DNA of 35,629 nt from Alphaproteobacteria bacterium MarineAlpha5_Bin3. Lineage in GTDB: Bacteria > Pseudomonadota > Alphaproteobacteria > HIMB59 > GCA-002718135. The stretch lies in assembly GCA_002938255.1 (NCBI GenBank), contig PTLB01000002.1:1-35629 (forward strand), read 5' to 3'. The position numbers and the translations under genes are program-made. The stretch's first letter is position 1, and each line of letters begins with the position of its first letter. The notes beneath the pieces were generated by a model. It was not told where the DNA came from. It saw nothing but the letters and a program-made list of their open reading frames with translations, and did not search any database. Positions 13,817 to 29,153 of the stretch are shown one piece after another.

Positions 13817-15235
13817 TTACTGAAAAAAATCAAGGCTTATTGTTGTGCCTATAGTCACAAAAACAGAGGGATAAAAAACAAAGAAAGAAAGAAACAGTAT
13901 TGCACAAATTAGTAATACTAATGATTGAGAAGTAATAATTGATTGATAATTACAATCATCTACTTCATCAAAGTACAAAACTTTAATAATTCTCAGGTAA
14001 TAATAAGCTGAAATGACACTAGATATTACTCCAAGAACTGCTAAAAAAATTAAATCAGCTTCTACAGCTGCAATAAATATATAAAATTTACCAAAAAAAC
14101 CCGCAAAAGGAGGTATTCCAGCTAGAGACAACATTATTATTGCTATGGAAAGACTTATAATTGGTTTTGATTTGCTCAATCCGGATAATTCACTTATTTT
14201 TTCAATGTAAGAGTTATTGTTTTTAAGTGATAAAATGATAGAAAAAATTGCGATATTCATAACTACATAAATTAACATATAAATAATAACGCCCTTAATT
14301 CCTGCAGCATTTGCTGAAGCGAGACCTATTAATATGTAGCCAACGTGACCAATTGAGCTGTACGCCAATAATCGTTTAATACTTTGTTGGGCAATTGCTG
14401 CTATAGCACCTAAAAACATGGAGCTAATAGACAAAAAAATAATTATTTGACTCCACTCGCTATAAAAATTGCCAAATGGCTCTAAGCAAAATCTATATAT
14501 TATTGCTACAGCAGATACTTTTGGAACTATTGCAAAAAAAGCTGTGATTGAAGTTGGAGCACCTTCATAAACATCAGGTGTCCACATATGAAAAGGCACA
14601 GCTGACACTTTGAAAGCTAATCCAACCAATACAAAAACAAGGCCAAATATTATACCTAAGCTTAAATGATTGATTGAAATTAAAGATAAGCGAATTTCTT
14701 CAAAATTAGTTGTTCCGGTAAATCCATAAATTAAAGAACATCCATACAACAGAATACCAGAAGATAAAGCACCCAAAACAAAGTATTTAACACCTGATTC
14801 AGCAGATTGGATAGAATCCCTTTTAATTGCAGCAACTACATAAAGTGTTAAACTTTGTAATTCAATTCCTAGATACATTGAAATTAAATCATTCGAAGAA
14901 ATTAATATTAGCATTCCCAAAGTAGAAAATGAAATTAATACTGGTATTTCAAACCGAGAAAGCTTTAGTTCCTCAAAATAAGATTTAGAAATAATAATAC
15001 TTGCTATACTTCCTAAGACAACAATAGATTTAAAAAATTGAATTAATAAAGAGCTCTTAAAAAAATAATTGTAACTAGCAAAAGAAAACTCTCTATTCAA
15101 ATAAATTAAGAAAAATACAAAAAATAATGCAATGACGGAAAGATTGGTAACATTAGAAAAAGAATTTTTTTTTTGAAATAAGCCAATTAATAAAATGATA
15201 GTCGTAAGCAGAACTAAAGTAATTTCAGGCATCAT
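13817..15235 (-). CDS. nuoN: NADH-quinone oxidoreductase subunit N
   Basis: Polytopic antiporter-like ORF and last gene of the nuo operon. The longest ORF runs to 15274 and would overlap nuoM by 23 nt. The MMPEITLVLL start at 15235 matches the usual NuoN N-terminus, so I prefer it. Confidence 0.92.
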   Translation of the reverse strand: MMPEITLVLLTTIILLIGLFQKKNSFSNVTNLSVIALFFVFFLIYLNREFSFASYNYFFKSSLLIQFFKSIVVLGSIASIIISKSYFEELKLSRFEIPVLISFSTLGMLILISSNDLISMYLGIELQSLTLYVVAAIKRDSIQSAESGVKYFVLGALSSGILLYGCSLIYGFTGTTNFEEIRLSLISINHLSLGIIFGLVFVLVGLAFKVSAVPFHMWTPDVYEGAPTSITAFFAIVPKVSAVAIIYRFCLEPFGNFYSEWSQIIIFLSISSMFLGAIAAIAQQSIKRLLAYSSIGHVGYILIGLASANAAGIKGVIIYMLIYVVMNIAIFSIILSLKNNNSYIEKISELSGLSKSKPIISLSIAIIMLSLAGIPPFAGFFGKFYIFIAAVEADLIFLAVLGVISSVISAYYYLRIIKVLYFDEVDDCNYQSIITSQSLVLLICAILFLSFFVFYPSVFVTIGTTISLDFFQ

Positions 15236-15251
15236 AAATATAGCTAGTAAA

Positions 15252-16736
15252 TTATTTTGCATTCGCAAACTCATAATTATTAATAATCAATTCTATTGGC
15301 AAACGCATAGGATCTAAAAAAATATTAGGGAAAATACCTATTAGTATGATCATTATTATCAATGGGTATAAAATAATTTTTTCACGAAAATCTATATCTA
15401 ATATATCTTTCAATTTTACGTTGCTCATCTGTCCAAAAATAATCCTTTTATATAAATATAACATATAAACTGCTGACAATATGATACCTGTTGCGGAGAA
15501 GAGGGCTAATAAAGAACTGTATTTAAAAGCTCCCATAATAATTAAAAATTCTCCAACAAAGCCACTCGTTCCAGGCAGACCCACTGAAGCTAATACAAAA
15601 ATCATAAAAGATACTGAGTAAAGGGGCATATTATTAACTAGCCCTCCATAAAAGCTAATATCTAGAGTATGCATACGATCATAAATTACTCCTACACTCA
15701 AAAAAAGGGCTGCTGAAACTACTCCATGACTGATCATTAGTATTATAGCTCCTTCAATTCCTTGCTGGTTAACAAGAAAAATACCGATCGTCACCATTCC
15801 CATATGTGCTACAGATGAGTAAGCAATTAGTTTTTTGATATCAGTTTGAGCTAGAGCAACTAGGGATGTGTAAATTATTGCAATAATACTCATAATCATA
15901 ATCAAAGGTAAGAAAAACTCAGATGCTTCTGGAAGCATCCCAAGGGAAAAACGAATAAAACCATACCCACCCATTTTTAATAAAACGCCTGCTAAGATAA
16001 CTGACCCTGCTGTTGGGGCTTCAACGTGGGCATCAGGCAACCATGTATGAAAGGGCCACATTGGAATTTTAACTGCAAAAGAGGCAAAAAAAGCTAACCA
16101 TAAATAAATTTGAATATTTTTGGAGAAAAAATTTCCCTGAAGTTCACTGATACTCATAGAATTGGTTAACTGATAAATAAAGATAATTGCAACTAACATG
16201 AGAACAGAACCTAACAAGGTATATAAAAAAAATTTAAACGTGGCGTATATACGTCTTTCTCCTCCCCACACTCCAATAATTAAAAACATAGGAATAAGTA
16301 CGGATTCAAAAAAAATATAAAACAATAATATATCAATTGAAGAAAACATACCTAACAGAACGGTTTCTAAAAAAAGAAATGCCATCATGTATTCTTTAAT
16401 TCTCTTATTAATACTTATCCAACTAGCTAAAATACAAAAAGGGGTTAAAAAAGTACTAAGCAAAATCATAAATAATGAAATTCCATCGACTCCAATATGA
16501 TAGTTAAAATTAAAATCAGTAAACCACTGATGTTTTTCACTTAATTGATATTCAGCGATGGAATTATCGAATTGTAACCAAATCAAACAACTAAAAATAA
16601 ACGTACCAATGGAAGTCAAAAGAGCAGCCCATTTAATATTGCTTAAAGAAGTTTCTTCCTCCTTAATAAAAAAAATGATTGAGGCTCCCAATATAGGTAA
16701 AAAAATTGTTACGGTTAATATGGGCCATTCAGTCAT
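15252..16736 (-). CDS. nuoM: NADH-quinone oxidoreductase subunit M
   Basis: Antiporter-like subunit of about 494 aa. The ORF track starts at a TTG (16751). An ATG at 16734-16736 lies 1 nt after the nuoL stop and gives MTEWPILTV..., so I prefer it. Confidence 0.92.
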   Translation of the reverse strand: MTEWPILTVTIFLPILGASIIFFIKEEETSLSNIKWAALLTSIGTFIFSCLIWLQFDNSIAEYQLSEKHQWFTDFNFNYHIGVDGISLFMILLSTFLTPFCILASWISINKRIKEYMMAFLFLETVLLGMFSSIDILLFYIFFESVLIPMFLIIGVWGGERRIYATFKFFLYTLLGSVLMLVAIIFIYQLTNSMSISELQGNFFSKNIQIYLWLAFFASFAVKIPMWPFHTWLPDAHVEAPTAGSVILAGVLLKMGGYGFIRFSLGMLPEASEFFLPLIMIMSIIAIIYTSLVALAQTDIKKLIAYSSVAHMGMVTIGIFLVNQQGIEGAIILMISHGVVSAALFLSVGVIYDRMHTLDISFYGGLVNNMPLYSVSFMIFVLASVGLPGTSGFVGEFLIIMGAFKYSSLLALFSATGIILSAVYMLYLYKRIIFGQMSNVKLKDILDIDFREKIILYPLIIMIILIGIFPNIFLDPMRLPIELIINNYEFANAK

Positions 16737-16737
16737 A

Positions 16738-18645
16738 TTAGTAATAAACAAACCATGTTAAAATTATAACTAAGCCACCCAACATGACAAAGGCATAATG
16801 GTAGAGATAGCCTGACTGAAACAAGCTTAATCTCTTAGAAAAATAATTGATTAATTTTGAGATGCCGTTTGGTCCATATTCATCTATTATGTAGATATCT
16901 CCTTTTTTCCAAAAAATAGATGCAATATAAAAAAAAGGTTGAACAAAAATACTATTATATAATTCATCTACATACCATTTGTTATAGGATATTAAGTATA
17001 GTAGTTGAAAATTACGAGATAATGATTTTGTTAAACCTTTCTTGTAAAAATACAACATAGCTGCTAACAAAATTCCAGCAGCAACTGTTGATTTTATTGT
17101 CAAGGTTTGAACAAAAGGTATATTGTGTTGTGCCGTATGAATTAAAACTACGGCATGATTCCAAAAAACTTCCTGCTTGGGTCCAATAAAAAAATCAGCA
17201 AGAATTGAACCAGAAAAAATTGTTCCTATTGCGAGAATAGCTAGGGAAATGGTCATTACTTTTGGAGACTCATGAACTTGATTAAAAGTTTCTTCTGTTG
17301 CACGGGGCTTGCCATGAAAAGTCATCAACAAAAGTCGCCAAGAATAAAAAGCTGTCAACAAAGCCGTGAATACTCCTACCACATATGCATATTGTGCCAT
17401 ACCTGAGGTTGAAAAATATGCATTTTCTAAAATGCTTTCCTTCGAATAATAGCCTGAAAAGAAAGGGAAGCCAATTATAGCAAGTGAACCAATCCACATC
17501 ATTGTACCTGTGAAAGGTATTTTTATAAACAACCCTCCCATTTTTCTCATGTCTTGTTCATGTTTCATTGCTTGTATTACAGAACCTGCCGATAAAAATA
17601 ATAAAGCTTTGAAAAATCCATGGGTCATTAAATGAAATATAGCAGCATTGTAAGCTCCTAATCCTGCTGCGAAAAACATATAACCTAATTGACTACAAGT
17701 TGAATATGCAATAACTCTTTTTATATCATTTTGAGTTAAAGCTATACTTGCTGCAAAAATTGCAGTTGAAGCTCCAATAAAAATTATAAATAAATTTGTA
17801 AATTCCGCATACTGAAAAAGTGGACTCATACGAGCCACCATAAAGATACCAGCAGTAACCATAGTAGCAGCATGTATTAATGCGGATACTGGGGTAGGCC
17901 CTTCCATAGCATCTGGCAACCAAGTATGTAGTCCTAATTGAGCGGACTTGCCCATAGCTCCAATAAATAAAAGAAAACACAACGTATCTATTGTTGATAA
18001 ACTTAATCCTAAAAAATTGAATGCGTGATTTTGGTAGTTAATCGCATCTGTAAAGATAATATCGAAATTTATTGATCCAAAAATAAAAAATACCCCAACT
18101 ATTCCAAGGACAAAACCAAAATCTCCTACTCGGTTAAGAATAAATGCCTTGATTGCAGCTTTATTAGCACTATCTTTATGGTGCCAAAAACCAATTAATA
18201 AATAAGAAGATAAACCAACGCCTTCCCAACCAAAAAACATTTGAAGCAAGTTATTACTCGATACTAACATCAACATAAAGAAAGTAAAAAGGCTTAAATA
18301 ACCCATAAATCTGTTAATTGACTTATCTTCATTCATATATCCTACTGAATAAAGATGAACACAAGCTGAAACTGTTGTCACTACAACCATCATAGTTGCA
18401 GTTAATGCATCAACTCTCAGACTCCAATCTGCAGAAAAAGAGCCTGATGTTATCCAGTTCAGGATATGTATAATTGTTGTATTTGCACCTTCTAAATATT
18501 GTAAAAAAATTATCCAAGAAAGAAAAGTAGATATAGTCAGTAAGAACGTAGTAACAAGTTGTGATACACGATCATGAAAATATGATCCGACAAATGCACA
18601 ATATAAAAAACCCAATAATGGCAAAAAAACAATTAATTTTATCAA
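16738..18645 (-). CDS. nuoL: NADH-quinone oxidoreductase subunit L
   Basis: 635-aa antiporter-like subunit with a long C-terminal extension. The apparent TTG start lies 1 nt after the nuoK stop. Confidence 0.93.
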   Translation of the reverse strand: MIKLIVFLPLLGFLYCAFVGSYFHDRVSQLVTTFLLTISTFLSWIIFLQYLEGANTTIIHILNWITSGSFSADWSLRVDALTATMMVVVTTVSACVHLYSVGYMNEDKSINRFMGYLSLFTFFMLMLVSSNNLLQMFFGWEGVGLSSYLLIGFWHHKDSANKAAIKAFILNRVGDFGFVLGIVGVFFIFGSINFDIIFTDAINYQNHAFNFLGLSLSTIDTLCFLLFIGAMGKSAQLGLHTWLPDAMEGPTPVSALIHAATMVTAGIFMVARMSPLFQYAEFTNLFIIFIGASTAIFAASIALTQNDIKRVIAYSTCSQLGYMFFAAGLGAYNAAIFHLMTHGFFKALLFLSAGSVIQAMKHEQDMRKMGGLFIKIPFTGTMMWIGSLAIIGFPFFSGYYSKESILENAYFSTSGMAQYAYVVGVFTALLTAFYSWRLLLMTFHGKPRATEETFNQVHESPKVMTISLAILAIGTIFSGSILADFFIGPKQEVFWNHAVVLIHTAQHNIPFVQTLTIKSTVAAGILLAAMLYFYKKGLTKSLSRNFQLLYLISYNKWYVDELYNSIFVQPFFYIASIFWKKGDIYIIDEYGPNGISKLINYFSKRLSLFQSGYLYHYAFVMLGGLVIILTWFVYY

Positions 18646-18646
18646 G

Positions 18647-18958
18647 TTATCCCTTTAGTTTGCGTATTTTTTCTACTTCAATTGAGCCAAGATTTCTAAA
18701 AAAGACTACCAAGATTGCCAATCCAATTGCTGCTTCCGCTGCAGCAACTGTTAAAGTAAACATTGCAAATATTTGACCCGATATATCGCCAAGAAAACTA
18801 GAAAAGGCAATAAAATTAATATTTACTGCTAGTAAAATCAATTCAACGGACATTAGAATTATAATGACATTTTTCTTGTTAAGAAAAATTCCTAAAACGC
18901 CAATTGTAAATAAAATTGCTCCAAGAAAAAGGAAATGATCTATAGTTATACTTGTCAT
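18647..18958 (-). CDS. nuoK: NADH-quinone oxidoreductase subunit K
   Basis: 103-aa, 3-TM ORF with the conserved [17 protein letters not shown] segment. It overlaps nuoJ by 4 nt. Confidence 0.93.
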
Positions 18959-19566
18959 ATTCCTTCTCTTAATTTAATTTTTTTCTTTATAATAGCTTTT
19001 GAAGCGTCGGCATTATTTTGATCCGAAATGATTTGCTTCTTCGATATTTCTCTTTGCCTTAAGGTTAATGTAATGGAACCAATCATCGCAACCAATAATA
19101 TTATCCCTGATATTTGAAAAAGATAAAAATACTTAGTATATAAAACAAATCCCAATAATTTGGTATTTTCAGTAATTGTTATCTCAGGCATTTGCGCATA
19201 CTCAACGAGGCTCATTTCAGAAAATGTCTCAGTAAAAAATGCAATTCCAAGTTCAACAATCAAAACTATTCCAAGCAAAACTCCAAAGGGAAGATATTGT
19301 AAAAAACCCTCACGTAATTTTATATAATTAATGTCTAACATCATAACTACAAATAAAAATAAAACCGCAACAGCGCCTACATAAACAACAAGAAGTATCA
19401 TTGCCAAAAACTCAGCTCCTAACAGAACAAATAGTCCTGCAGCATTAACAAAACTTAAAATTAAAAACAAAACAGAGTGGACGGAGTTTTTTGAACTGAT
19501 AACCATTAGTGCAGACAATACTGCAATTGTTGAAAACAAATAAAATGAAAGAGTATAAATAATCAT
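18955..19566 (-). CDS. nuoJ: NADH-quinone oxidoreductase subunit J
   Basis: 203-aa hydrophobic ORF positioned between nuoI and nuoK. Confidence 0.9.
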
Positions 19567-19569
19567 ATA

Positions 19570-20058
19570 CTAACGGTAAGGCGAATCAGCTTTCAAATTT
19601 TGGGCAATTTCATGTTCCCACTTATCTCCGTTATCAAGAAGTTTAGCTTTATTGTACATTAGTTCTTCTCTTGTCTCTGTAGCAAATTCATAGTTAGGTC
19701 CTTCTACGATCGCATCAACAGGGCAGGACTCTTCGCACAAACCACAGTAAATACATTTACTCATATCGATGTCATATCTTGTTGTTCTACGACTGCCATC
19801 GGATCTTGGCTCAGCCTCAATTGTAATTGCTTGTGCAGGGCAAACTGCTTCACAGAGTTTACAAGCTATGCATCTTTCCTCTCCGTTTGGATATCTTCTT
19901 AAAGCATGCTCTCCTCTAAAACGAGGGCTAAGAGGACTCTTTTCATGAGGATAATTAATCGTCACCTTTGATTTAAACATATATTTAAATGTTAAAAGCA
20001 TTCCTGAAAAAAGTTCAAAAAGAGCAAAAGATTTTATTGCCTTGACTACTGAAAACAT
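19570..20058 (-). CDS. nuoI: NADH-quinone oxidoreductase subunit I
   Basis: Contains two 4Fe-4S ferredoxin motifs, [12 protein letters not shown] and [12 protein letters not shown]. The longest ORF reaches 20079. The ATG at 20056-20058 ([11 protein letters not shown]...) lies 1 nt after the nuoH stop and fits the usual N-terminus. Confidence 0.94.
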
Positions 20059-20059
20059 T

Positions 20060-21079
20060 TTAACCAGGCACCATGTCAAAAATTGTTAAAAAACTAGCAG
20101 TTACAACTACCCAAAACAATGATAGCGGCAAAAAAATTTTCCATCCCAATCTCATTAATTGGTCATATCTATAACGAGGAAAAGTTCCTCGAACCCAAAT
20201 AAATAAAAAAAGTATAAAAATAATTTTTGCAGTAAACCAAATTATCCCTGGAACAACGTTAAAAGGGAAAATATCAAAAGGTGGTAACCACCCTCCTAAA
20301 AATAAAATAACTGTCATTGCACTCATTAAAATCATGCTTGCATATTCTGCTAAAAAAAATAGAGCAAACGATGCGGAGGAATATTCAGTAAAAAATCCTG
20401 CTACTAAAGTTGCCTCATCTTCTGGCAAATCAAAAGGCAATCTATTTGTTTCCGCTAATGCAGAAATAAAAAAAACTATAAACATCGGCAATAAAGGAAT
20501 TGCAAACCAAACTGTTGTTTGTGCTTCTACTATTTTTGTTAAATTTAATGAACCTACACACAAAAGAACAGTAATAATAACAAATCCTATAGAAACTTCA
20601 TAAGAAACCATTTGAGCTGCAGAACGAAGGGCACCTAAAAAAGGATATTTGGAATTACTAGCCCATCCAGCCATAATTACTCCATAGATACTTAAAGATG
20701 AGACTGCAAATAAATACATAACACCAACATTTATATCTGAGACAACCCAACCTGGTGCAAATGGAATGACAGCCCAAGCAGCTAAACTTAAAACCATTGT
20801 AATTATAGGGGCAAGAATAAAAACAATTTTATTTGACCCGCTTGGTATAATATTTTCCTTTGTTAGAAGTTTTAATGCATCAGCAAAACTTTGAAGTATG
20901 CCAAAAGGTCCAACAATATTTGGACCTCTTCTTAATTGTATTAATGCTAAAACTTTTCTTTCTGCATACACAAGGAATGCCACAGAAACCAAAACAGGGA
21001 CTATTACTGCCATAATTTGCGCAATAATTATTGAACCTGGAGCTATGATGTCATTCATTAAAGAAAAATCTGAGGTCAT
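20060..21079 (-). CDS. nuoH: NADH-quinone oxidoreductase subunit H
   Basis: 339-aa polytopic ORF with [15 protein letters not shown] (RxGPNxVGxxGxLQ signature). Confidence 0.95.
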
Positions 21080-23122
21080 TTAAGCTACCTTATCTAATAT
21101 TTCTTTTGAGCATTTAGCCATTGTAACGGAAGATCTACTAATGGAATCTGTCATATAAAAATTTTTAATATTATATTCTAATTCTCTATTTTTGATTTTA
21201 ACTGGTAATCCAAATTTTGATAGCAACACTGAAGGCAATGAATTTATTTCTTTTAAAAAAATAAACTTTGTAATAATCTCTTGTCTTAACTCATTGAGAT
21301 TATTAAAATTTAATTTGTTTTCAAATTGATCACTTAGTGCTCTAAATATTTTCCATTCTTCTTTTGATTCTCCTATGGGATTATAGCTTTTAGTAGTTTG
21401 CATGACGCGTCCTTCCATATTTACAAAAGTAGATGTTTTTTCTGGGAAGGCCGGGATAGGCAAAATTATATCAGCAATATTAGCTGTTGCATCCCCATGA
21501 TGGCCTAAATAGACAACAAATGAATCTTGAAGTATTGAAAGATCTATTTCATCCAGACCTAATAAAAAAACAACCGGTTTGTAATTTTGAATATGTTGTT
21601 TTAATGAGTTTTTATAATCAAGATCAAAAAAATTATTATAGAAACCGATATCTAAAGCCCCTACTCGAGAAATATCTTGTTGAAGGATATTTAAGCCATT
21701 AAAATTATGGTTAGTTATTTGATATTTTTTTGCGATTTCTGCACAGACTTTTAATATATCCTTACCATCAGAGAAATTTATAGCAGAAGTGCCAATAATA
21801 ATTAAAGGTTTTTTTGCCTTCTTCAACACTGTACAAAAATCAGATTGATCATTTAAAATATCATTTAAATAATCAATGTTATTGGAAAGGTGTTTATATG
21901 TATAAGTTAAATCAATTGCTTTTCCAATTAGGCCAATTTTGCAATTGTTGTGAATATAAGCTTTTCTAATTCGTGCATTTAAAACAGTTGCTTCCCACCT
22001 TGGGTTACTTCCAATGATTAGTATAGCATCTGCATCATCTATTTTCTGGATTGAGGAATTAAAAATATAGCTATCTCTTTGGTTTTCAATAAATTGAGCA
22101 TTATCATATCTGCAGTCATAAGAAGATGATCCAATAGAGTTTAAAAATGATTTTGCTGAATAAAGAGTTTCAATATCTGTAAGCTTACCACTTAGTGCTA
22201 AAGTCTTGTTTTTATTTCTATTATTAATTTCAGTTACAATAATAGATAAGGCAGTATTCCAATCTACTATTTGAAATTTTGAATTTTTTCTCATGAAAGG
22301 TTTGTCTAGTCTTTGTTTTGTAAGGCCATCAATCGCAAAGCGTGATTTATCATTTATCCATTCTTCATTAATTTCTTCATTGAGTCTTGGTAAAACTCGC
22401 AATACAGTTTTACCAAGGGAGTCAATTCTAATACTCGAACCCATTGCGTCAAATACATCTATTGTTTCTGTTTTTTTTAGTTCCCAAGGTCTCGCCTTAA
22501 ATTCGTAAGGCTTACTTGTTAAAGCGCCAACAGGGCATAAATCTATAACATTCCCTGATAATTCTGATTTTATTGTTTTCTCAAGATATGTTGTAATTTC
22601 TGCATTTTCCCCTCTTCCTAACATACCCAAGTCATCAACTCCAGCCACCTCAGTCGAAAATCTCACACACCGAGTACAATGAATGCATCTTGTCATAATA
22701 GTACCTACCAAAGGGCCCATATGTTTATTATTTACCGCTCTTTTATTCTCTTCATATCTTGATTTATCGAAACCGTAATGAAGAGCTTGATCTTGTAAGT
22801 CACATTCTCCACCTTGATCACAGATTGGACAATCTAAAGGATGATTTATAAGTAAAAATTCCATTACTCCTCTTCTTGCACTTTTTACTAAATCAGTATT
22901 TGTTTTAATAACCATCCCTTCTCCAGCTGGCATTGCACAAGAAGCAATTGGTTTTGGAGATTTCTCCATTTCAACAAGACACATTCTACAGTTTCCTGCG
23001 ATTGACAGTTTATCATGATAACAAAATCTTGGTATTTCCACATTGGCAAGTTCACAAGCCTGCATTACTGTCATGCCATTTTCAAATTCAATTTCTCTAT
23101 TATCAATCGTAATTTTTGGCAT
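21080..23122 (-). CDS. nuoG: NADH-quinone oxidoreductase subunit G
   Basis: 680-aa ORF with an N-terminal 2Fe-2S motif (CYHDKLSIAGNCRMC) and 4Fe-4S motifs (HPLDCPICDQGGEC, CIHCTRCVRF). Confidence 0.95.
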   Translation of the reverse strand: MPKITIDNREIEFENGMTVMQACELANVEIPRFCYHDKLSIAGNCRMCLVEMEKSPKPIASCAMPAGEGMVIKTNTDLVKSARRGVMEFLLINHPLDCPICDQGGECDLQDQALHYGFDKSRYEENKRAVNNKHMGPLVGTIMTRCIHCTRCVRFSTEVAGVDDLGMLGRGENAEITTYLEKTIKSELSGNVIDLCPVGALTSKPYEFKARPWELKKTETIDVFDAMGSSIRIDSLGKTVLRVLPRLNEEINEEWINDKSRFAIDGLTKQRLDKPFMRKNSKFQIVDWNTALSIIVTEINNRNKNKTLALSGKLTDIETLYSAKSFLNSIGSSSYDCRYDNAQFIENQRDSYIFNSSIQKIDDADAILIIGSNPRWEATVLNARIRKAYIHNNCKIGLIGKAIDLTYTYKHLSNNIDYLNDILNDQSDFCTVLKKAKKPLIIIGTSAINFSDGKDILKVCAEIAKKYQITNHNFNGLNILQQDISRVGALDIGFYNNFFDLDYKNSLKQHIQNYKPVVFLLGLDEIDLSILQDSFVVYLGHHGDATANIADIILPIPAFPEKTSTFVNMEGRVMQTTKSYNPIGESKEEWKIFRALSDQFENKLNFNNLNELRQEIITKFIFLKEINSLPSVLLSKFGLPVKIKNRELEYNIKNFYMTDSISRSSVTMAKCSKEILDKVA

Positions 23123-24402
23123 TACGCAACAGCCTTTCTTTGTTGATTTTCTTCAATACGCTTCTCAATTTCTGGCCTAAAGTGCCTCATTAAACCTTGT
23201 ATTGGCCAAGCAGCGGCATCACCTAAGGCACATATTGTATGTCCCTCTACTTGTTTGGTGACATCTAATAATTTATCAATATCTTCATGTTGAACATTTC
23301 CATCTATCATTTTTTTCATAATTCTAAACATCCAACCGGTACCTTCTCGACATGGAGTACACTGACCACAACTCTCATGTTTATAAAAATATGACAGTCT
23401 TGTAATCGCCTCAACAATATCAGTGGTTTTATTCATTACAATAACTGCTGCTGTCCCTAGACCGCTTTGAACGCCTTGCAGACTATCGAAATCCATTTTA
23501 ATGTTATCACATATAGATTTTGGTATCAGTGACACACTAGCACCTCCTGGTATAACTGCTAGCAGATTATCCCAACCTCCAATTACGCCACCAGCATGTT
23601 TTTCAATTAATTCCTTTAGGGGGATACCCATTTCTTCTTCCACATTACATGGATTATTAACATGACCAGAAATACTGAAAATTTTAGTACCAGTATTTTT
23701 GGGATTTCCTATACCTGCAAACCATTGTGCTCCGCGTCTTAAAATTGTGGGTACTACAGCAACAGTCTCAACATTAGTTACAGTAGTAGGACATCCATAC
23801 AAACCAGCGCCAGCTGGAAAAGGTGGTTTTAGTCTCGGTTGCCCTTTTTTTCCTTCTAAGCTTTCAAGAAGAGCTGTTTCTTCACCGCAAATGTAAGCTC
23901 CTGCCCCTCTATGTAAAAAAATGTCAAAATCCCACTTAGAACCACATGCATTTTTTCCAATCAAGCTTGCGACATATGCTTCATCAATCGCTTTTTGTAA
24001 ATTGGATGACTCATTATAATATTCTCCCCTTATATAAATATAACAAGCATGTGCCTGCATAGCAAAACCGGCCACTAAGCATCCTTCTAGAAGAAGATGT
24101 GGATCATTTCTTAAAATTTCTCTATCTTTACAAGTTCCTGGTTCTGATTCGTCTGCATTTATTACAAGATAATGAGGTTTACCAGAATTTTTTGGCATGA
24201 ATGACCATTTTAATCCAGCAGGAAAGCCTGCTCCACCACGACCTCTTAAATCGCTTTTTTTAATTTCTTCGATAATGTAATCACTTCCTTTGGCAATTAA
24301 ATCTTTAGTGTTAGACCATATTCCACGTTTTCGAGATCCTTCAATGCCCCAATCATCATACCCATATATATTTTTAAAAATCTTATCTTTTTCTTTCAAC
24401 AT
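23122..24402 (-). CDS. nuoF: NADH-quinone oxidoreductase subunit F
   Basis: 426-aa ORF with the FMN/NADH site [13 protein letters not shown] and the N3 cluster motif [12 protein letters not shown]. Confidence 0.96.
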
Positions 24403-24403
24403 A

Positions 24404-24997
24404 TTAGTTATTTCTTTTTGGATCTGAAGTTTGTCTTCCTATTTGTGAACCTGGTTTAATACTTTTGTTAGTTTTTAAATTATTTAACAAATCTCTAAAA
24501 TTATTTTCAGTTAAATCCTCATAATAATCATCATTAATTTGAACCATGGGTGCATTACAACAAGCTCCTAAACATTCTACTTCAACAACAGTAAACTGAT
24601 TATCATTAGAAGTAACTCCAATTTTACAACCAGTTACTTCTTTAGCCACCTCTGATAACTTATCACTGCCTCGCAACCAACAAGGAGTAGTTCTGCATAT
24701 TTGAACATAATTTTTACCAACTGGGTTTAAATTAAACATAGAATAAAAAGTGACTACTTCTAAAACTCTTATAAAAGACATACTTAAAGTTTCTGCGATT
24801 TTTTCTATAGCGCTTTTATTTAACCAGCCTTTGTTTTGTCTTTGAGCCAAATCCAGAAGAGGTATTACTGCACTTTGCTGTCTTCCTGGAGGATATTTCT
24901 CAATAATAATTTGTATTTTGGCAAAATTTTTTTCTGACCATTGAAAAAAATCATTGTTATCTTTGATTACTGTATTAATCAATCCTGGGTGTTTCAT
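24404..24997 (-). CDS. nuoE: NADH-quinone oxidoreductase subunit E
   Basis: 197-aa ORF with thioredoxin-like 2Fe-2S ligands (CRTTPC ... CLGACCNAP). Confidence 0.94.
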
Positions 24998-26172
24998 CGA
25001 TCAACTTCTCCAAATACTATATCCAAACTTCCTAAAATAGCAGCAATATCAGCCATTAAATGACCTTTGGACAAATGATTTAGTGTTTGCAAATGCGCAA
25101 AACCAGGGGCTCTAATTTTACATCTGTAAGGTTTGCTTGAACCGTCTGATACTAGAAAAACGCCAAATTCTCCTTTAGGTGCTTCTACAGCACAATATGT
25201 CTCCCCTGAAGGAACTCGGTATCCTTCAGTAAATAATTTAAAGTGATGGATTAATGATTCCATTGATTTTTTCATTGTATTTCTTTTTGGTGGTGTAATC
25301 TTGTTATCATTAATAGCAATATCGCCAGGCTTAATTAGATTTAAGCATTGCTTAATAATTTCAATGCTTTGTCTCATTTCTTCAATTCTAATTAAATATC
25401 TATCAAAACAATCGCCATTTTTACCAATAGGTACATCAAAATCTACTTTGTCATAGGCATCATAAGGTTGGGAGCGCCTTAGATCCCAAGCTACTCCCGC
25501 ACTTCTTAATACTGGTCCTGTACACCCCCATTCAATAGCTTCTTGCTTGGTGATCACGCCTATATTAACCGAACGTTGACGAAGTATTCTATTATTCGTT
25601 AACAATTCTTCCAAGTCATCTAAAAATTTAGGCAGGTTGTTTACGTGATCAAAAAGCTTCTGTTCCATACCGTCGGGCATATCTTGATGTACGCCTCCTG
25701 GTCTGAAATAAGCAGCGTGAAAACGCGCTCCCGAAACAGCCTCGTGAAATTCTAGCAATTTCTCTCTTTCTTCAAAACACCAAAGAAAAGGTGTGACTGC
25801 ACCGATATCGGCAGCATAGGCAGGAACATTTAATAAATGATTAAGAATACGAGTTATTTCAGAAAAAATAACGCGAATATACTGTGCACGGATTGGGACC
25901 TTAATATTTAACAACTGTTCAGTAGCTAATGCGAAAGCATGCTCTTGACACATGGGAGACACATAATCAAGACGATCAAAGTATGGTACTGCTTGCAAAT
26001 ATGTTTTATATTCAATAAGTTTTTCAGTTCCACGATGAAGTAAACCGATATGTGGCTCTACTCTCTCAACCACTTCCCCGTCTAATTCCACAACCAATCT
26101 TAAAACACCATGTGCTGCCGGATGTTGAGGGCCAAAATTAAGAGTAGTTGAGTTAATTTCTACTTCTTTCAT
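24994..26172 (-). CDS. nuoD: NADH-quinone oxidoreductase subunit D
   Basis: 392-aa ORF with the [15 protein letters not shown] signature and a C-terminal DIVFGEVDR. Confidence 0.96.
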
Positions 26173-26792
26173 GAGTTATTTTCTTCTGAGGATTTTTCAT
26201 CTCCTATTAATTTATTATCAAACCCTTCCCAAGGGCTCATATAATCAAAATTTCTATATTCTTGTGCTAGCTTGACAGGTTCGTACACAACTTTTTTTTC
26301 AAGGTCATCATAATGAACTTCTGTATGTCCTGTTAAAGGAAAATCTTTTCTTAGCGGATGTCCTTCAAAATTATAATCTGTCATTATTCTTCGTAAATCT
26401 GGGTGATTAGAAAATTGAATACCAAATAAATCATAACATTCTCTTTCATACCAATTTGCTGCTTTATGAATAATTGTAATTGATTCCAATACTGTACTTT
26501 CATCAATAGATGTTTTAACTAAAATGCGTTGATTTAAAGTTAAACTTATTAATAAGTAAATAATATCAAATCGCTTCTCTCTTGAAGGATAGTCAATTGC
26601 TGTCACATCAATTAATTGGTCAAATAGTAGTTTTGTATCTTCCTTTAATTCTTTAATGACTTTGAATATTTTTACCGGTTCAGTTTTGATCTCTAAATAC
26701 TTATCATTATTAATTATTTCAACTCCAAGAAATCTATCAACTATAATTTTTTTTGTATCACCAATGCTTTGCATCTTATCTGTTAAATACAT
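26169..26792 (-). CDS. nuoC: NADH-quinone oxidoreductase subunit C
   Basis: 207-aa ORF with the [21 protein letters not shown] signature. Confidence 0.94.
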
Positions 26793-26987
26793 TTTTTCTT
26801 TTTATTTTCTTTTGAAGTTGCAAAATACCGTAAACCAAAGCTTTTGCTGTGGGTGGGAACCCGTTCGAGCCCAAGTTATTAATTTATCAAAGTTTGCTAA
26901 AAGAAAACCTTTAGAATTTAATTCATCTCCAAAATCATTTTCATCAATCGTGGAATCTACTCCCATTCTAGTGCGCCTTTTTTCCAT
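26776..26987 (-). pseudogene. nuoB: nuoB remnant: N-terminal ~44 codons fused out of frame to the last ~26 codons; central Fe-S (N2) domain missing
   Basis: In frame A, 26802-26987 encodes ...GFLLANFDKLITWARTGS and then the nonsense run HPQQKLWFTVFCNFKRK*. In the neighbouring frame, from about 26858 down to the stop at 26776-26778, the DNA encodes [26 protein letters not shown]. That is the canonical NuoB C-terminus, and it overlaps the nuoC start by 17 nt. The junction lies around 26855-26858 (minus strand GGTTCC/CACCC). Confidence 0.8.
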
Positions 26988-27322
26988 TCATATATAAAGC
27001 CAACAGTAAGTATTAATAAGAAAATCATCATAGACCAAAATCCAAAAATCCCAATACTACCGAGAGAAATTGCCCAAGGAAATAGGAAGGCGACTTCTAG
27101 ATCAAAAATAATAAATAAGATTGCTACTAAATAAAATCTTACATCAAACCTTCCTCTTGCGTCATCAAAAGCTTCAAATCCGCATTCGTATGCTGATAGT
27201 TTTTCACTATCTGGTTTTGAACTACCTAGAATAAAAGGTATTGCAGTCATACTGATGGCTATGACAAAACTTATAAAAATAAAGATGAGTATAGGTAAGT
27301 ATTCTAATAAGAAAGATGTCAC
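26957..27322 (-). CDS. nuoA: NADH-quinone oxidoreductase subunit A
   Basis: 121-aa, 3-TM ORF with the [10 protein letters not shown] motif. It uses a GTG start (rev-comp of cac 27320-27322) preceded by AAGGAA. Confidence 0.93.
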
Positions 27323-27428: not shown

Positions 27429-27505
27429 TGGCGCGAGAGACGGGATTCGAACCCGCGACCTCCGCCGTGACAGGGCGGCGTTCTAACCAGCTGAACTACT
27501 CCCGC
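27429..27505 (-). tRNA. tRNA-Asp (anticodon GUC)
   Basis: A hand-folded 77-nt cloverleaf on the minus strand: GCGGGAG-TA-GTTC-AGCTGGTTA-GAAC-G-CCGCC-CTGTCAC-GGCGG-AGGTC-GCGGG-TTCGAAT-CCCGT-CTCTCGC-G-CCA. The CCA end is encoded. Confidence 0.93.
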
Positions 27506-27623: not shown

Positions 27624-28880
27624 TTATGAAGAATTTTTTTCATTTTTATTATTTGTTATCAAGCGAGCACTTTTACTAAAAGTTAGATATGACCAAACCC
27701 AATTTACAAAAACCATAAAACGGTTGCGAAAACCTATCAAAAAATAAATGTGAATCAATGACCAAAATATCCACCCAATCCTGCCTTTAAGAGTGAGCCA
27801 ACCAAAATCAACAATTGCTTTTGACCTCCCAATGGTAGCAAGATAACCCCTGTTTTTATAGTAAAATTTATTTTGAGTTTTATCGTTAAGCACATACTTT
27901 TTAATAACTCCAGCAACAAACCTGCCTTCTTGTTTAGCTACAGGAGCCAGTCCAGGTAAGGGGTTGCCATTTTTATCTTTAACATGAGAGGCATCACCAA
28001 CAACAAAAATTTTAGGGTATTTGGGAATTGACAAGTCATCATTGACAAATACCCTACCAATCTTATCTGTTTCAATATTTATCAAATTTCTAAGAAGTGA
28101 AACTTTAACTCCCGCGCACCATATAATTGTTCCTGCCTCAATATTTTCATTATTGGTTGAAACCAAAAATTCTGTAATATTTTGAACAACAGTATTACAT
28201 TTAACTTCTACCCCCATTTTTTCAAGACTATCTTTTGCATAAATAGATAATCTAAGTGAAGCTGTGGGTAATATACTAGGACCTGCTTCTAATAAAATAA
28301 TTTGTGTAGCCATTGTGTCAATGGTAGCAAATTCTTTTGTTAATACATTTTTAGACAATTCTGCTATAGCGCCGGCCATTTCCACTCCTGTCGGACCTCC
28401 ACCTATAACAACAAATTTCAAAAGTTTGTTTATTGTTTTATCATCATTTATTCTTTCGGCTTTTTCAAAAGCTTGTAAAATCTTGCTTCGTAGTAAAGTA
28501 GCATTTTCAATATTTTTTAAACCAAGTGAGAATTTTTTCCACTGATCTTGACCAAAATAACTTAGTTCTGAACCCGTAGCTAAAATAAGATAATCATATG
28601 AGTATGTGTTATTTCTAGTTCTAATTCGATTAAATTGAGGTTTAATTTCAACCAACTCATCAAGAATAACTTTAAGATTTTGTTGTGAACGAAAAATGTT
28701 TCTGATTGGCAGAGCTATATCGGCAGGAGAAAGTCCCGCTGTGGCTACCTGGTATAACAACGGTTGGAATAAATGATAATTATTTTTGTCAATAATTGTT
28801 ATATTAAATGAAGATGTAACTAACACTTTAGCTGCTTGCAAACCTGCAAAACCTGCCCCTACAATAATAATCTTATTCAA
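27624..28880 (-). CDS. ndh: type II NADH:quinone oxidoreductase (NDH-2)
   Basis: 418-aa ORF with two dinucleotide-binding motifs (IIIVGAGFAGLQAA at the N-terminus and VVIGGGPTGVEMAGA) plus VVGDAS. It has the hydrophobic or amphipathic C-terminal tail typical of NDH-2. The start reads TTG (rev-comp of caa 28878-28880). Confidence 0.85.
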   Translation of the reverse strand: MNKIIIVGAGFAGLQAAKVLVTSSFNITIIDKNNYHLFQPLLYQVATAGLSPADIALPIRNIFRSQQNLKVILDELVEIKPQFNRIRTRNNTYSYDYLILATGSELSYFGQDQWKKFSLGLKNIENATLLRSKILQAFEKAERINDDKTINKLLKFVVIGGGPTGVEMAGAIAELSKNVLTKEFATIDTMATQIILLEAGPSILPTASLRLSIYAKDSLEKMGVEVKCNTVVQNITEFLVSTNNENIEAGTIIWCAGVKVSLLRNLINIETDKIGRVFVNDDLSIPKYPKIFVVGDASHVKDKNGNPLPGLAPVAKQEGRFVAGVIKKYVLNDKTQNKFYYKNRGYLATIGRSKAIVDFGWLTLKGRIGWIFWSLIHIYFLIGFRNRFMVFVNWVWSYLTFSKSARLITNNKNEKNSS

Positions 28881-29077: not shown

Positions 29078-29153
29078 TGGTGGGTGTTGAGAGACTCGAA
29101 CTCCCGACCCTCTCGGTGTAAACGAGATGCTCTACCAACTGAGCTAAACACCC
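29078..29153 (-). tRNA. tRNA-Val (anticodon UAC)
   Basis: A hand-folded 76-nt cloverleaf on the minus strand: GGGTGTT-TA-GCTC-AGTTGGTA-GAGC-A-TCTCG-TTTACAC-CGAGA-GGGTC-GGGAG-TTCGAGT-CTCTC-AACACCC-A-CCA. Confidence 0.93.

Follow-up and report, generated by a model that had tools for sequence, protein, structure and literature searches.

In Alphaproteobacteria bacterium MarineAlpha5_Bin3, nuoB of the complex I operon is a unitary pseudogene, a deletion remnant lying between an intact nuoA and an intact nuoC. The remnant is a genuine feature of the lineage and has reached fixation in an abundant HIMB59/SAR11-like clade of marine bacteria, in which the other complex I genes remain under strong purifying selection. 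The probable explanation is that the operon nuoB became redundant and decayed while NuoB was supplied in trans by a standalone nuoB, and a gene family suited to this role was found in marine metagenomes.

The stretch of DNA analyzed, referred to here as the window, comprises 35,629 nt (GCA_002938255.1, contig PTLB01000002.1, positions 1-35,629 of the forward strand). Few bacterial gene clusters are as conserved as the complex I operon, and 13 of the 14 genes of a complete nuoA-N operon are intact in the window, nuoB being the exception. The features of the locus are as follows.

13817..26172, minus strand: nuoD, E, F, G, H, I, J, K, L, M and N, all full length, with Pfam matches
26792..26169, minus strand: nuoC, intact (PF00329)
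26776..26857, minus strand: nuoB tail remnant, in the other frame, with its stop codon at 26778-26776 (tblastn and L119 alignment)
26858..26966, minus strand: nuoB head remnant, from the ATG at 26966-26964 through codon ~36 (..TWARTGS) (sequence, tblastn and L119 alignment)
26802..26987, minus strand: mechanical 61-aa ORF from the ORF list, consisting of the head and an out-of-frame read-through, without a Pfam family
27322..26957, minus strand: nuoA, intact (PF00507, E 2e-40)
27429-27505: tRNA-Asp, flanking the NDH-2 gene
27624..28880, minus strand: type II NADH dehydrogenase (NDH-2) (PF07992, PF22366)
29078-29153: tRNA-Val, flanking the NDH-2 gene

The first-pass annotation had described a head and a tail of nuoB joined out of frame within the roughly 165 nt between the nuoA stop (26957) and the nuoC start (26792), with the remaining 13 nuo genes full length. 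This description holds: the spacing is 164 nt, both the sequence and tblastn identify the two pieces, and full-length Pfam matches were obtained for nuoA and nuoC-N. The head starts at an ATG overlapping the nuoA stop, as it does in relatives, and the NuoB reading can be followed as far as ...LITWARTGS, after which an out-of-frame stretch runs to a stop at 26802. The resulting 61-aa ORF has 44 amino acids followed by HPQQKLWFTVFCNFKRK and the stop. The reading frame of the tail spans 26874..26776 (minus strand) and ends 17 nt past the nuoC start at 26792, also as described, and the native nuoC start is more likely the ATG at 26774, which gives the 201-aa form called in relatives. When the window was searched by tblastn with the intact NuoB of a close relative, the head matched at 78% over 55 aa (E 2e-23) and the tail at 93% over 28 aa (E 2e-12), with no further NuoB match in the 35.6 kb. 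Neither the 61-aa nor the 32-aa remnant ORF matched PF01058 (Oxidored_q6) in Pfam.

The extent of the deletion was defined by alignment to the closest intact locus, L119 (GCA_035092285.1, contig JAYKCC010182447.1). The alignment ends at 26860 and picks up at 26857, placing the junction at ~26860-26856, and L119 nt 442-759 are missing, a net loss of 316 nt, or ~105 codons, with a shift of frame; about 100 middle codons had first been thought absent. The head breaks off at TWARTGS and the tail begins at PPTA, the cysteine codon of GCPP being gone, and none of the four cysteine ligands of cluster N2 (CCxxE, GSC, GCPP) is kept, in agreement with the loss initially proposed. The remnant shares with NuoB/PSST proteins its position between nuoA and nuoC and its residual homology and no other feature. 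The 61-aa ORF is not conserved among the deletion alleles described below, in the others of which the corresponding ORFs are 50, 67 and 30 aa long. When scanned for promoters and terminators, neither the remnant nor the standalone locus gave a signal above shuffled expectation.

The junction GGGTTCCCACCCACAGC was identical in 19/19 fetched loci, all from independent assemblies and 99.5-100% identical to the window. These loci were retrieved by exact-sequence look-ups of the window NuoC and NuoA and derive from ENA/SPIRE Station ALOHA samples, other ENA studies and one JGI metagenome, assembled with different assemblers. Recurrence of the same junction across studies and assemblers, together with related alleles in many more loci, excludes for all practical purposes the earlier suggestion that the deletion arose artificially during assembly or amplification of one SAG or MAG, to which we attach a negligible probability. 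The exact NuoA and NuoC of the window occur on 208 and 144 contigs, respectively, and NuoD of its lineage on 95. NuoC homologues form a continuum from 99% to 86% identity, and close relatives at 90-98% carry three further deletion alleles with different endpoints, so that four types can be listed.

Type 1: the window and L081-L099; NuoC 100% identical to that of the window; nuoA-nuoC gap of 164 nt; L119 nt 442-759 missing
Type 2: L108-L111; NuoC 98%; gap of 156-157 nt; L119 nt 482-805 missing
Type 3: L100-L103 and L112-L117; NuoC 90-93%; gap of 70 nt; L119 nt 403-829 missing
Type 4: L118; NuoC 92%; gap of 95 nt; L119 nt 391-794 missing

Types 1 and 2 each hold sequence absent from the other and must therefore have arisen separately, by deletion from a longer gene. 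The same mutual independence applies to types 3 and 4. Short microhomology is all that is apparent by eye at the junctions, whose endpoints had been singled out for alignment with relatives at the outset. The type 4 locus (L118, positions 1-341) is a mosaic, with a nuoA ~79% identical in nucleotides to all relatives but a nuoC 99% identical to that of L103. The switch point lies at the nuoB remnant, which indicates a recombination breakpoint coincident with the deletion and, as recombination is evident, the number of independent deletions is put conservatively at at least two. In one type 2 locus (L109, 2814-3017) the loss of one more base brings head and tail into frame as a 67-aa mini-ORF without a Cys ligand, and this remnant differs from that of L108 at several positions.

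Intact nuoB is the rule outside the clade. It was found at the operon position in 78/80 reference-genome relatives, the other two loci lacking upstream DNA, and it is kept by the nearest outgroups, L119 and L104-L107 (SUTE22-1 metagenomes; NuoC 86-87% for L104-L107). These outgroups resemble the window in synteny and in nuoA and nuoC genes that are 87-94% identical in nucleotides, and L104-L107 also have NDH-2 upstream, but all retain a 175-aa nuoB with PF01058. Nucleotide identity of nuoC is at least 91% among the nuoB-less alleles and at most 89% to the intact outgroups. The nuoB-less forms are far commoner than their intact sisters (hundreds of contigs versus 1-11 for L119 and L104-L107). 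Among species representatives of the reference genomes, queried with NuoC and NDH-2, no clade member was found and NuoC matches did not exceed 73%; the sole NDH-2 match of 83% was dropped as a 1,974-nt mis-binned contig. Near homologues of the sister's NuoB were likewise dropped as candidate standalone copies, since all begin MEKR..MGV or MG[VI], the signature of the nuoA overlap, and are thus canonical, and proteins of 216-238 aa among the NuoB homologues are chimeric assemblies. Two HIMB59/SAR11-like nuo or NDH-2 contigs (L001 and L298) are filed in Marinimicrobia/Dehalococcoidia-labelled MAGs, probably through binning errors.

Selection on the partner genes has persisted. For nuoC-F, Nei-Gojobori dN/dS was 0.07-0.15 when the alleles were compared with one another and 0.06 relative to the intact sister, and NuoD was the most constrained (0.02-0.05). 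Within alleles, synonymous and nonsynonymous polymorphisms stood at 18:7 (type 1), 36:9 (type 2), and 27:10 and 88:15 (two type 3 groups), corresponding to pN/pS of 0.04-0.10 (P versus neutrality, 6e-8 to 6e-45). Polymorphism among loci with one common deletion allele originated, barring recombination, after the deletion. A relative-rate test against the intact sister gave 26 versus 20 unique amino-acid changes, which is not significant and shows no acceleration. In the type 2 remnant itself, by contrast, variation exceeded that at synonymous sites, with 13/182 sites polymorphic compared with 36/~833 synonymous sites in flanking genes, in keeping with evolution free of constraint. Repeated deletions within 0.5 kb of a 14-kb operon, combined with constraint on the other genes, indicate that nuoB alone, and not complex I, was dispensable. 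Two rare frameshifts were seen in the partner genes, each in one assembly: an 11-nt deletion in the 3' part of nuoD truncates the product to 370 aa (L115), and a 13-nt deletion at the end of nuoE creates a nuoE-nuoF fusion with a 620-aa product (L087/L096). These may be assembly errors or early or low-frequency decay.

A candidate source of NuoB in trans lies outside any nuo operon. P0208, a NuoB homologue with a non-canonical N-terminus, is encoded on a 52-kb contig of SAG AG-464-G03 beside a rhodanese, a Cys/Met PLP enzyme, a RimK-like gene and a sulfur transporter, and AG-464-G03 is the sole reference genome bearing its N-terminal signature. Related to P0208 is a metagenomic standalone NuoB family, MDKTGTEYLLEE[AT]SNSNNKDGSAGIITTQF...TLCNKMAPAL...KKIRRQAKEKLAQT, at a locus syntenic with that of AG-464-G03, where the order is SufE, fatty-acid desaturase, metallo-beta-lactamase-fold protein, rhodanese, PLP enzyme, RimK-like protein, nuoB, 7Fe ferredoxin, NfuA and 2Fe-2S ferredoxin. 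The standalone protein (MDKTGTEYLLEEASNSNNKDGSAGIITTQF...KKIRRQAKEKLAQT, beginning with MDKTGTEYLLEE) matches PF01058 (E 6e-28), has all four Cys motifs (CCGVE, GSCANGGG, GCPP) and aligns over the entire length of solved NuoB/PSST chains, its residues 23-167 matching 7ar7_B at E 2e-83 and Paracoccus 8qby_B at E 9e-79. Judged by its sequence, it is a bona fide NuoB. An intact nuoB paralogue elsewhere in the genome, which by the first-pass annotation's own standard would refute its interpretation, is probably represented by this family.

The standalone genes can be linked to the clade by similarity and by occurrence. Among 226 nuoB cores from the fetched loci, the nearest relative of the standalone core is the canonical nuoB of L119 (88% of nucleotides, 74-76% of third positions), followed by those of L104-L107 (84-86%), with all others at or below 83%; reciprocally, the nearest relatives of the L119 nuoB are the standalone genes. 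This is where the gene missing from the nuoB-less operons would be expected to fall. The tail remnant of the window also shares an identical 39-nt block with both L119 and the standalone gene. The consensus protein of the standalone family is present on 134 contigs versus 144 for the NuoC of the window, and the canonical NuoB proteins of intact sisters on 1, 1 and 16. Standalone contigs come from LUOE20-1 (Station ALOHA series) and the ERZ237968xx study, both of which also yielded nuoB-less operons. The N- and C-termini of the standalone protein are unrelated to those of the operon copy and similar to those of AG-464-G03, the nuoB core of which is similar to other canonical lineages; such termini call for an older paralogue and gene conversion and not for simple transposition. 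None of the contigs or genomes examined held both a nuoB-less operon and a standalone nuoB, and no standalone nuoB variant matched the NuoA, NuoC or NuoD of the clade in its longest contig, the standalone consensus reaching 35,257 nt and the NuoA and NuoC of the window 169,382 nt, on different contigs.

Other NuoB homologues outside canonical operons were considered. P0150 (longest contig 7,109, as for L117) was dropped because it has a canonical N-terminus and would not fit into L117. Canonical operon copies dominated the matches listed in a JGI metagenome scan with NuoB and a genome scan with the standalone NuoB, and the one non-operon NuoB of interest among those listed (L126) proved to be viral. 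NuoB-like genes of 168-171 aa, with PF01058 and all Cys motifs, occur on viral contigs (L126, 1266-2998; L204, 5992-7748; L210, 5968-9175; also L205 and L206), which are IMG/VR UViGs of up to 45.7 kb with a GC content of about 0.37. There nuoB adjoins cytochrome b, SufB-like and PyrD-like genes amid phage DNA methyltransferase, DnaB-like helicase and polymerase fragments, and neither the viral NuoB nor the cytochrome b belongs to a PHROG family. These genes are possibly respiratory-chain auxiliary genes of marine phages; a pairing of nuoB with auxiliary metabolic genes was not found in the literature searched. Finally, a metagenome contig with a GC content of 0.51 carries a NuoB gene (L160, 262-783) with no nuoC or nuoD within 2.5 kb downstream, possibly another standalone nuoB from an unrelated organism.

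A second NADH dehydrogenase adjoins the damaged operon. The NDH-2 gene lies just upstream of nuoA, where it separates the two tRNAs of a conserved lon-hupB-tRNA-tRNA-nuoA arrangement, and at this site it was found only in the nuoB-less clade and its intact sisters. A 75% homologue is present at a different location in other HIMB59-like genomes, and the next relatives, at most 51% identical, are in Ignavibacteria/Bacteroidota, suggesting a horizontal origin. In nuoB-less L108 and L110, the gene is frameshifted by the same 1-nt deletion (nt ~867) in two independent assemblies, and in nuoB-less L094 a nonsense mutation interrupts it at codon 117, losses that would be hard to tolerate were complex I dead too.

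The most plausible reading of these data is that, besides the operon copy, the lineage has a standalone nuoB at a different locus, which would supply the N2 subunit in trans and render the operon copy redundant. The operon nuoB would then have been removed piecemeal by several independent short-microhomology deletions, with nuoA and nuoC-N kept under selection, presumably still as one transcription unit, and complex I most likely still functional. The standalone copy would most likely go back to an older second locus, in which gene conversion homogenised the core with that of the operon nuoB before the latter decayed in the clade. We infer that genomes with the nuoB-less operon also encode the standalone nuoB and that the product of the standalone gene is assembled into complex I.

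Recent inactivation of complex I had been proposed at the outset, and a functional loss in which the adjacent NDH-2 took over NADH oxidation, with nuoB struck first and the other 13 genes yet undecayed, would account for the position of NDH-2 in the clade and its sisters, for the rare frameshifts in nuoD or nuoE and for the failure to find nuoB in the same genome among the contigs and genomes examined. It is nevertheless disfavoured and in our judgment rather unlikely. The loss is clade-wide, with four deletion alleles that affect nuoB only, and none of the several deletions became fixed in the other ~13.5 kb; polymorphism within each allele is strongly skewed to synonymous changes, with no acceleration relative to the intact sister; nuoB-less forms far outnumber intact relatives; and NDH-2 is itself broken in some nuoB-less strains.

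Continued purifying selection on nuoA and nuoC-F after loss of the operon nuoB could also mean that the 13 subunits are kept for a NuoB-independent role, e.g., as a membrane-arm antiporter with an NADH-oxidizing module or as a modified complex lacking N2. NuoB and NuoD together form the quinone site, and the strongest constraint falls on NuoD, the partner of NuoB there. NuoB is, to our knowledge, indispensable in every characterized enzyme, and we know of no complex I relative without a NuoB homologue. As a fitting standalone nuoB also exists, such a role is very improbable. There is a slim chance that the lineage is without any functional NuoB despite strong purifying selection on its other 13 complex I genes. 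It would then possess a complex I-derived machine that works in the absence of the N2 subunit, or the remaining subunits would have taken on a new function.

Supply of NuoB in trans, the reading preferred here, would make the clade a natural case in which the last Fe-S subunit is uncoupled from the remaining complex I. A globally abundant marine lineage has erased its operon nuoB several times and preserved the other genes, and the likely replacement is situated among Fe-S/sulfur-handling genes. With an Fe-free NDH-2 adjacent to the operon, and provided that the trans-copy model is true, NADH oxidation could, speculatively, be controlled according to the supply of iron or sulfur; if there is no trans copy, the accepted minimal architecture of complex I would be challenged. 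Metabolic calls of complex I as "incomplete" or "inactive" are probably wrong for this clade. No report of nuoB-only loss with a standalone replacement in SAR11, HIMB59-like or AEGEAN-169 bacteria was found in the literature searched.

The window matches the canonical nuoA-N operon of the Paracoccus denitrificans type (PDB 8qby chain B) in gene order, in having a nuoB start that overlaps the nuoA stop and in the 13 other subunits, and the head and tail of its remnant are clearly those of NuoB in a canonical alphaproteobacterial operon. It differs in the deletion of the ~105-codon nuoB core with all four N2 cysteines and in the shifted frame. In the Mycobacterium leprae type of loss, the nuo operon is gone and NDH-2 is kept; the presence of NDH-2 beside a damaged nuo locus is similar, but there the whole operon decays, whereas 13 genes are intact and constrained in the nuoB-less clade. 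In Rickettsiales, complex I genes are dispersed over several loci, and the likeness is to a complex I subunit encoded outside the main cluster and supplied in trans. Unlike in Rickettsiales, only nuoB would lie outside the cluster in the nuoB-less clade, and the operon copy can still be recognized there as a decaying remnant, which exists in four allelic states.
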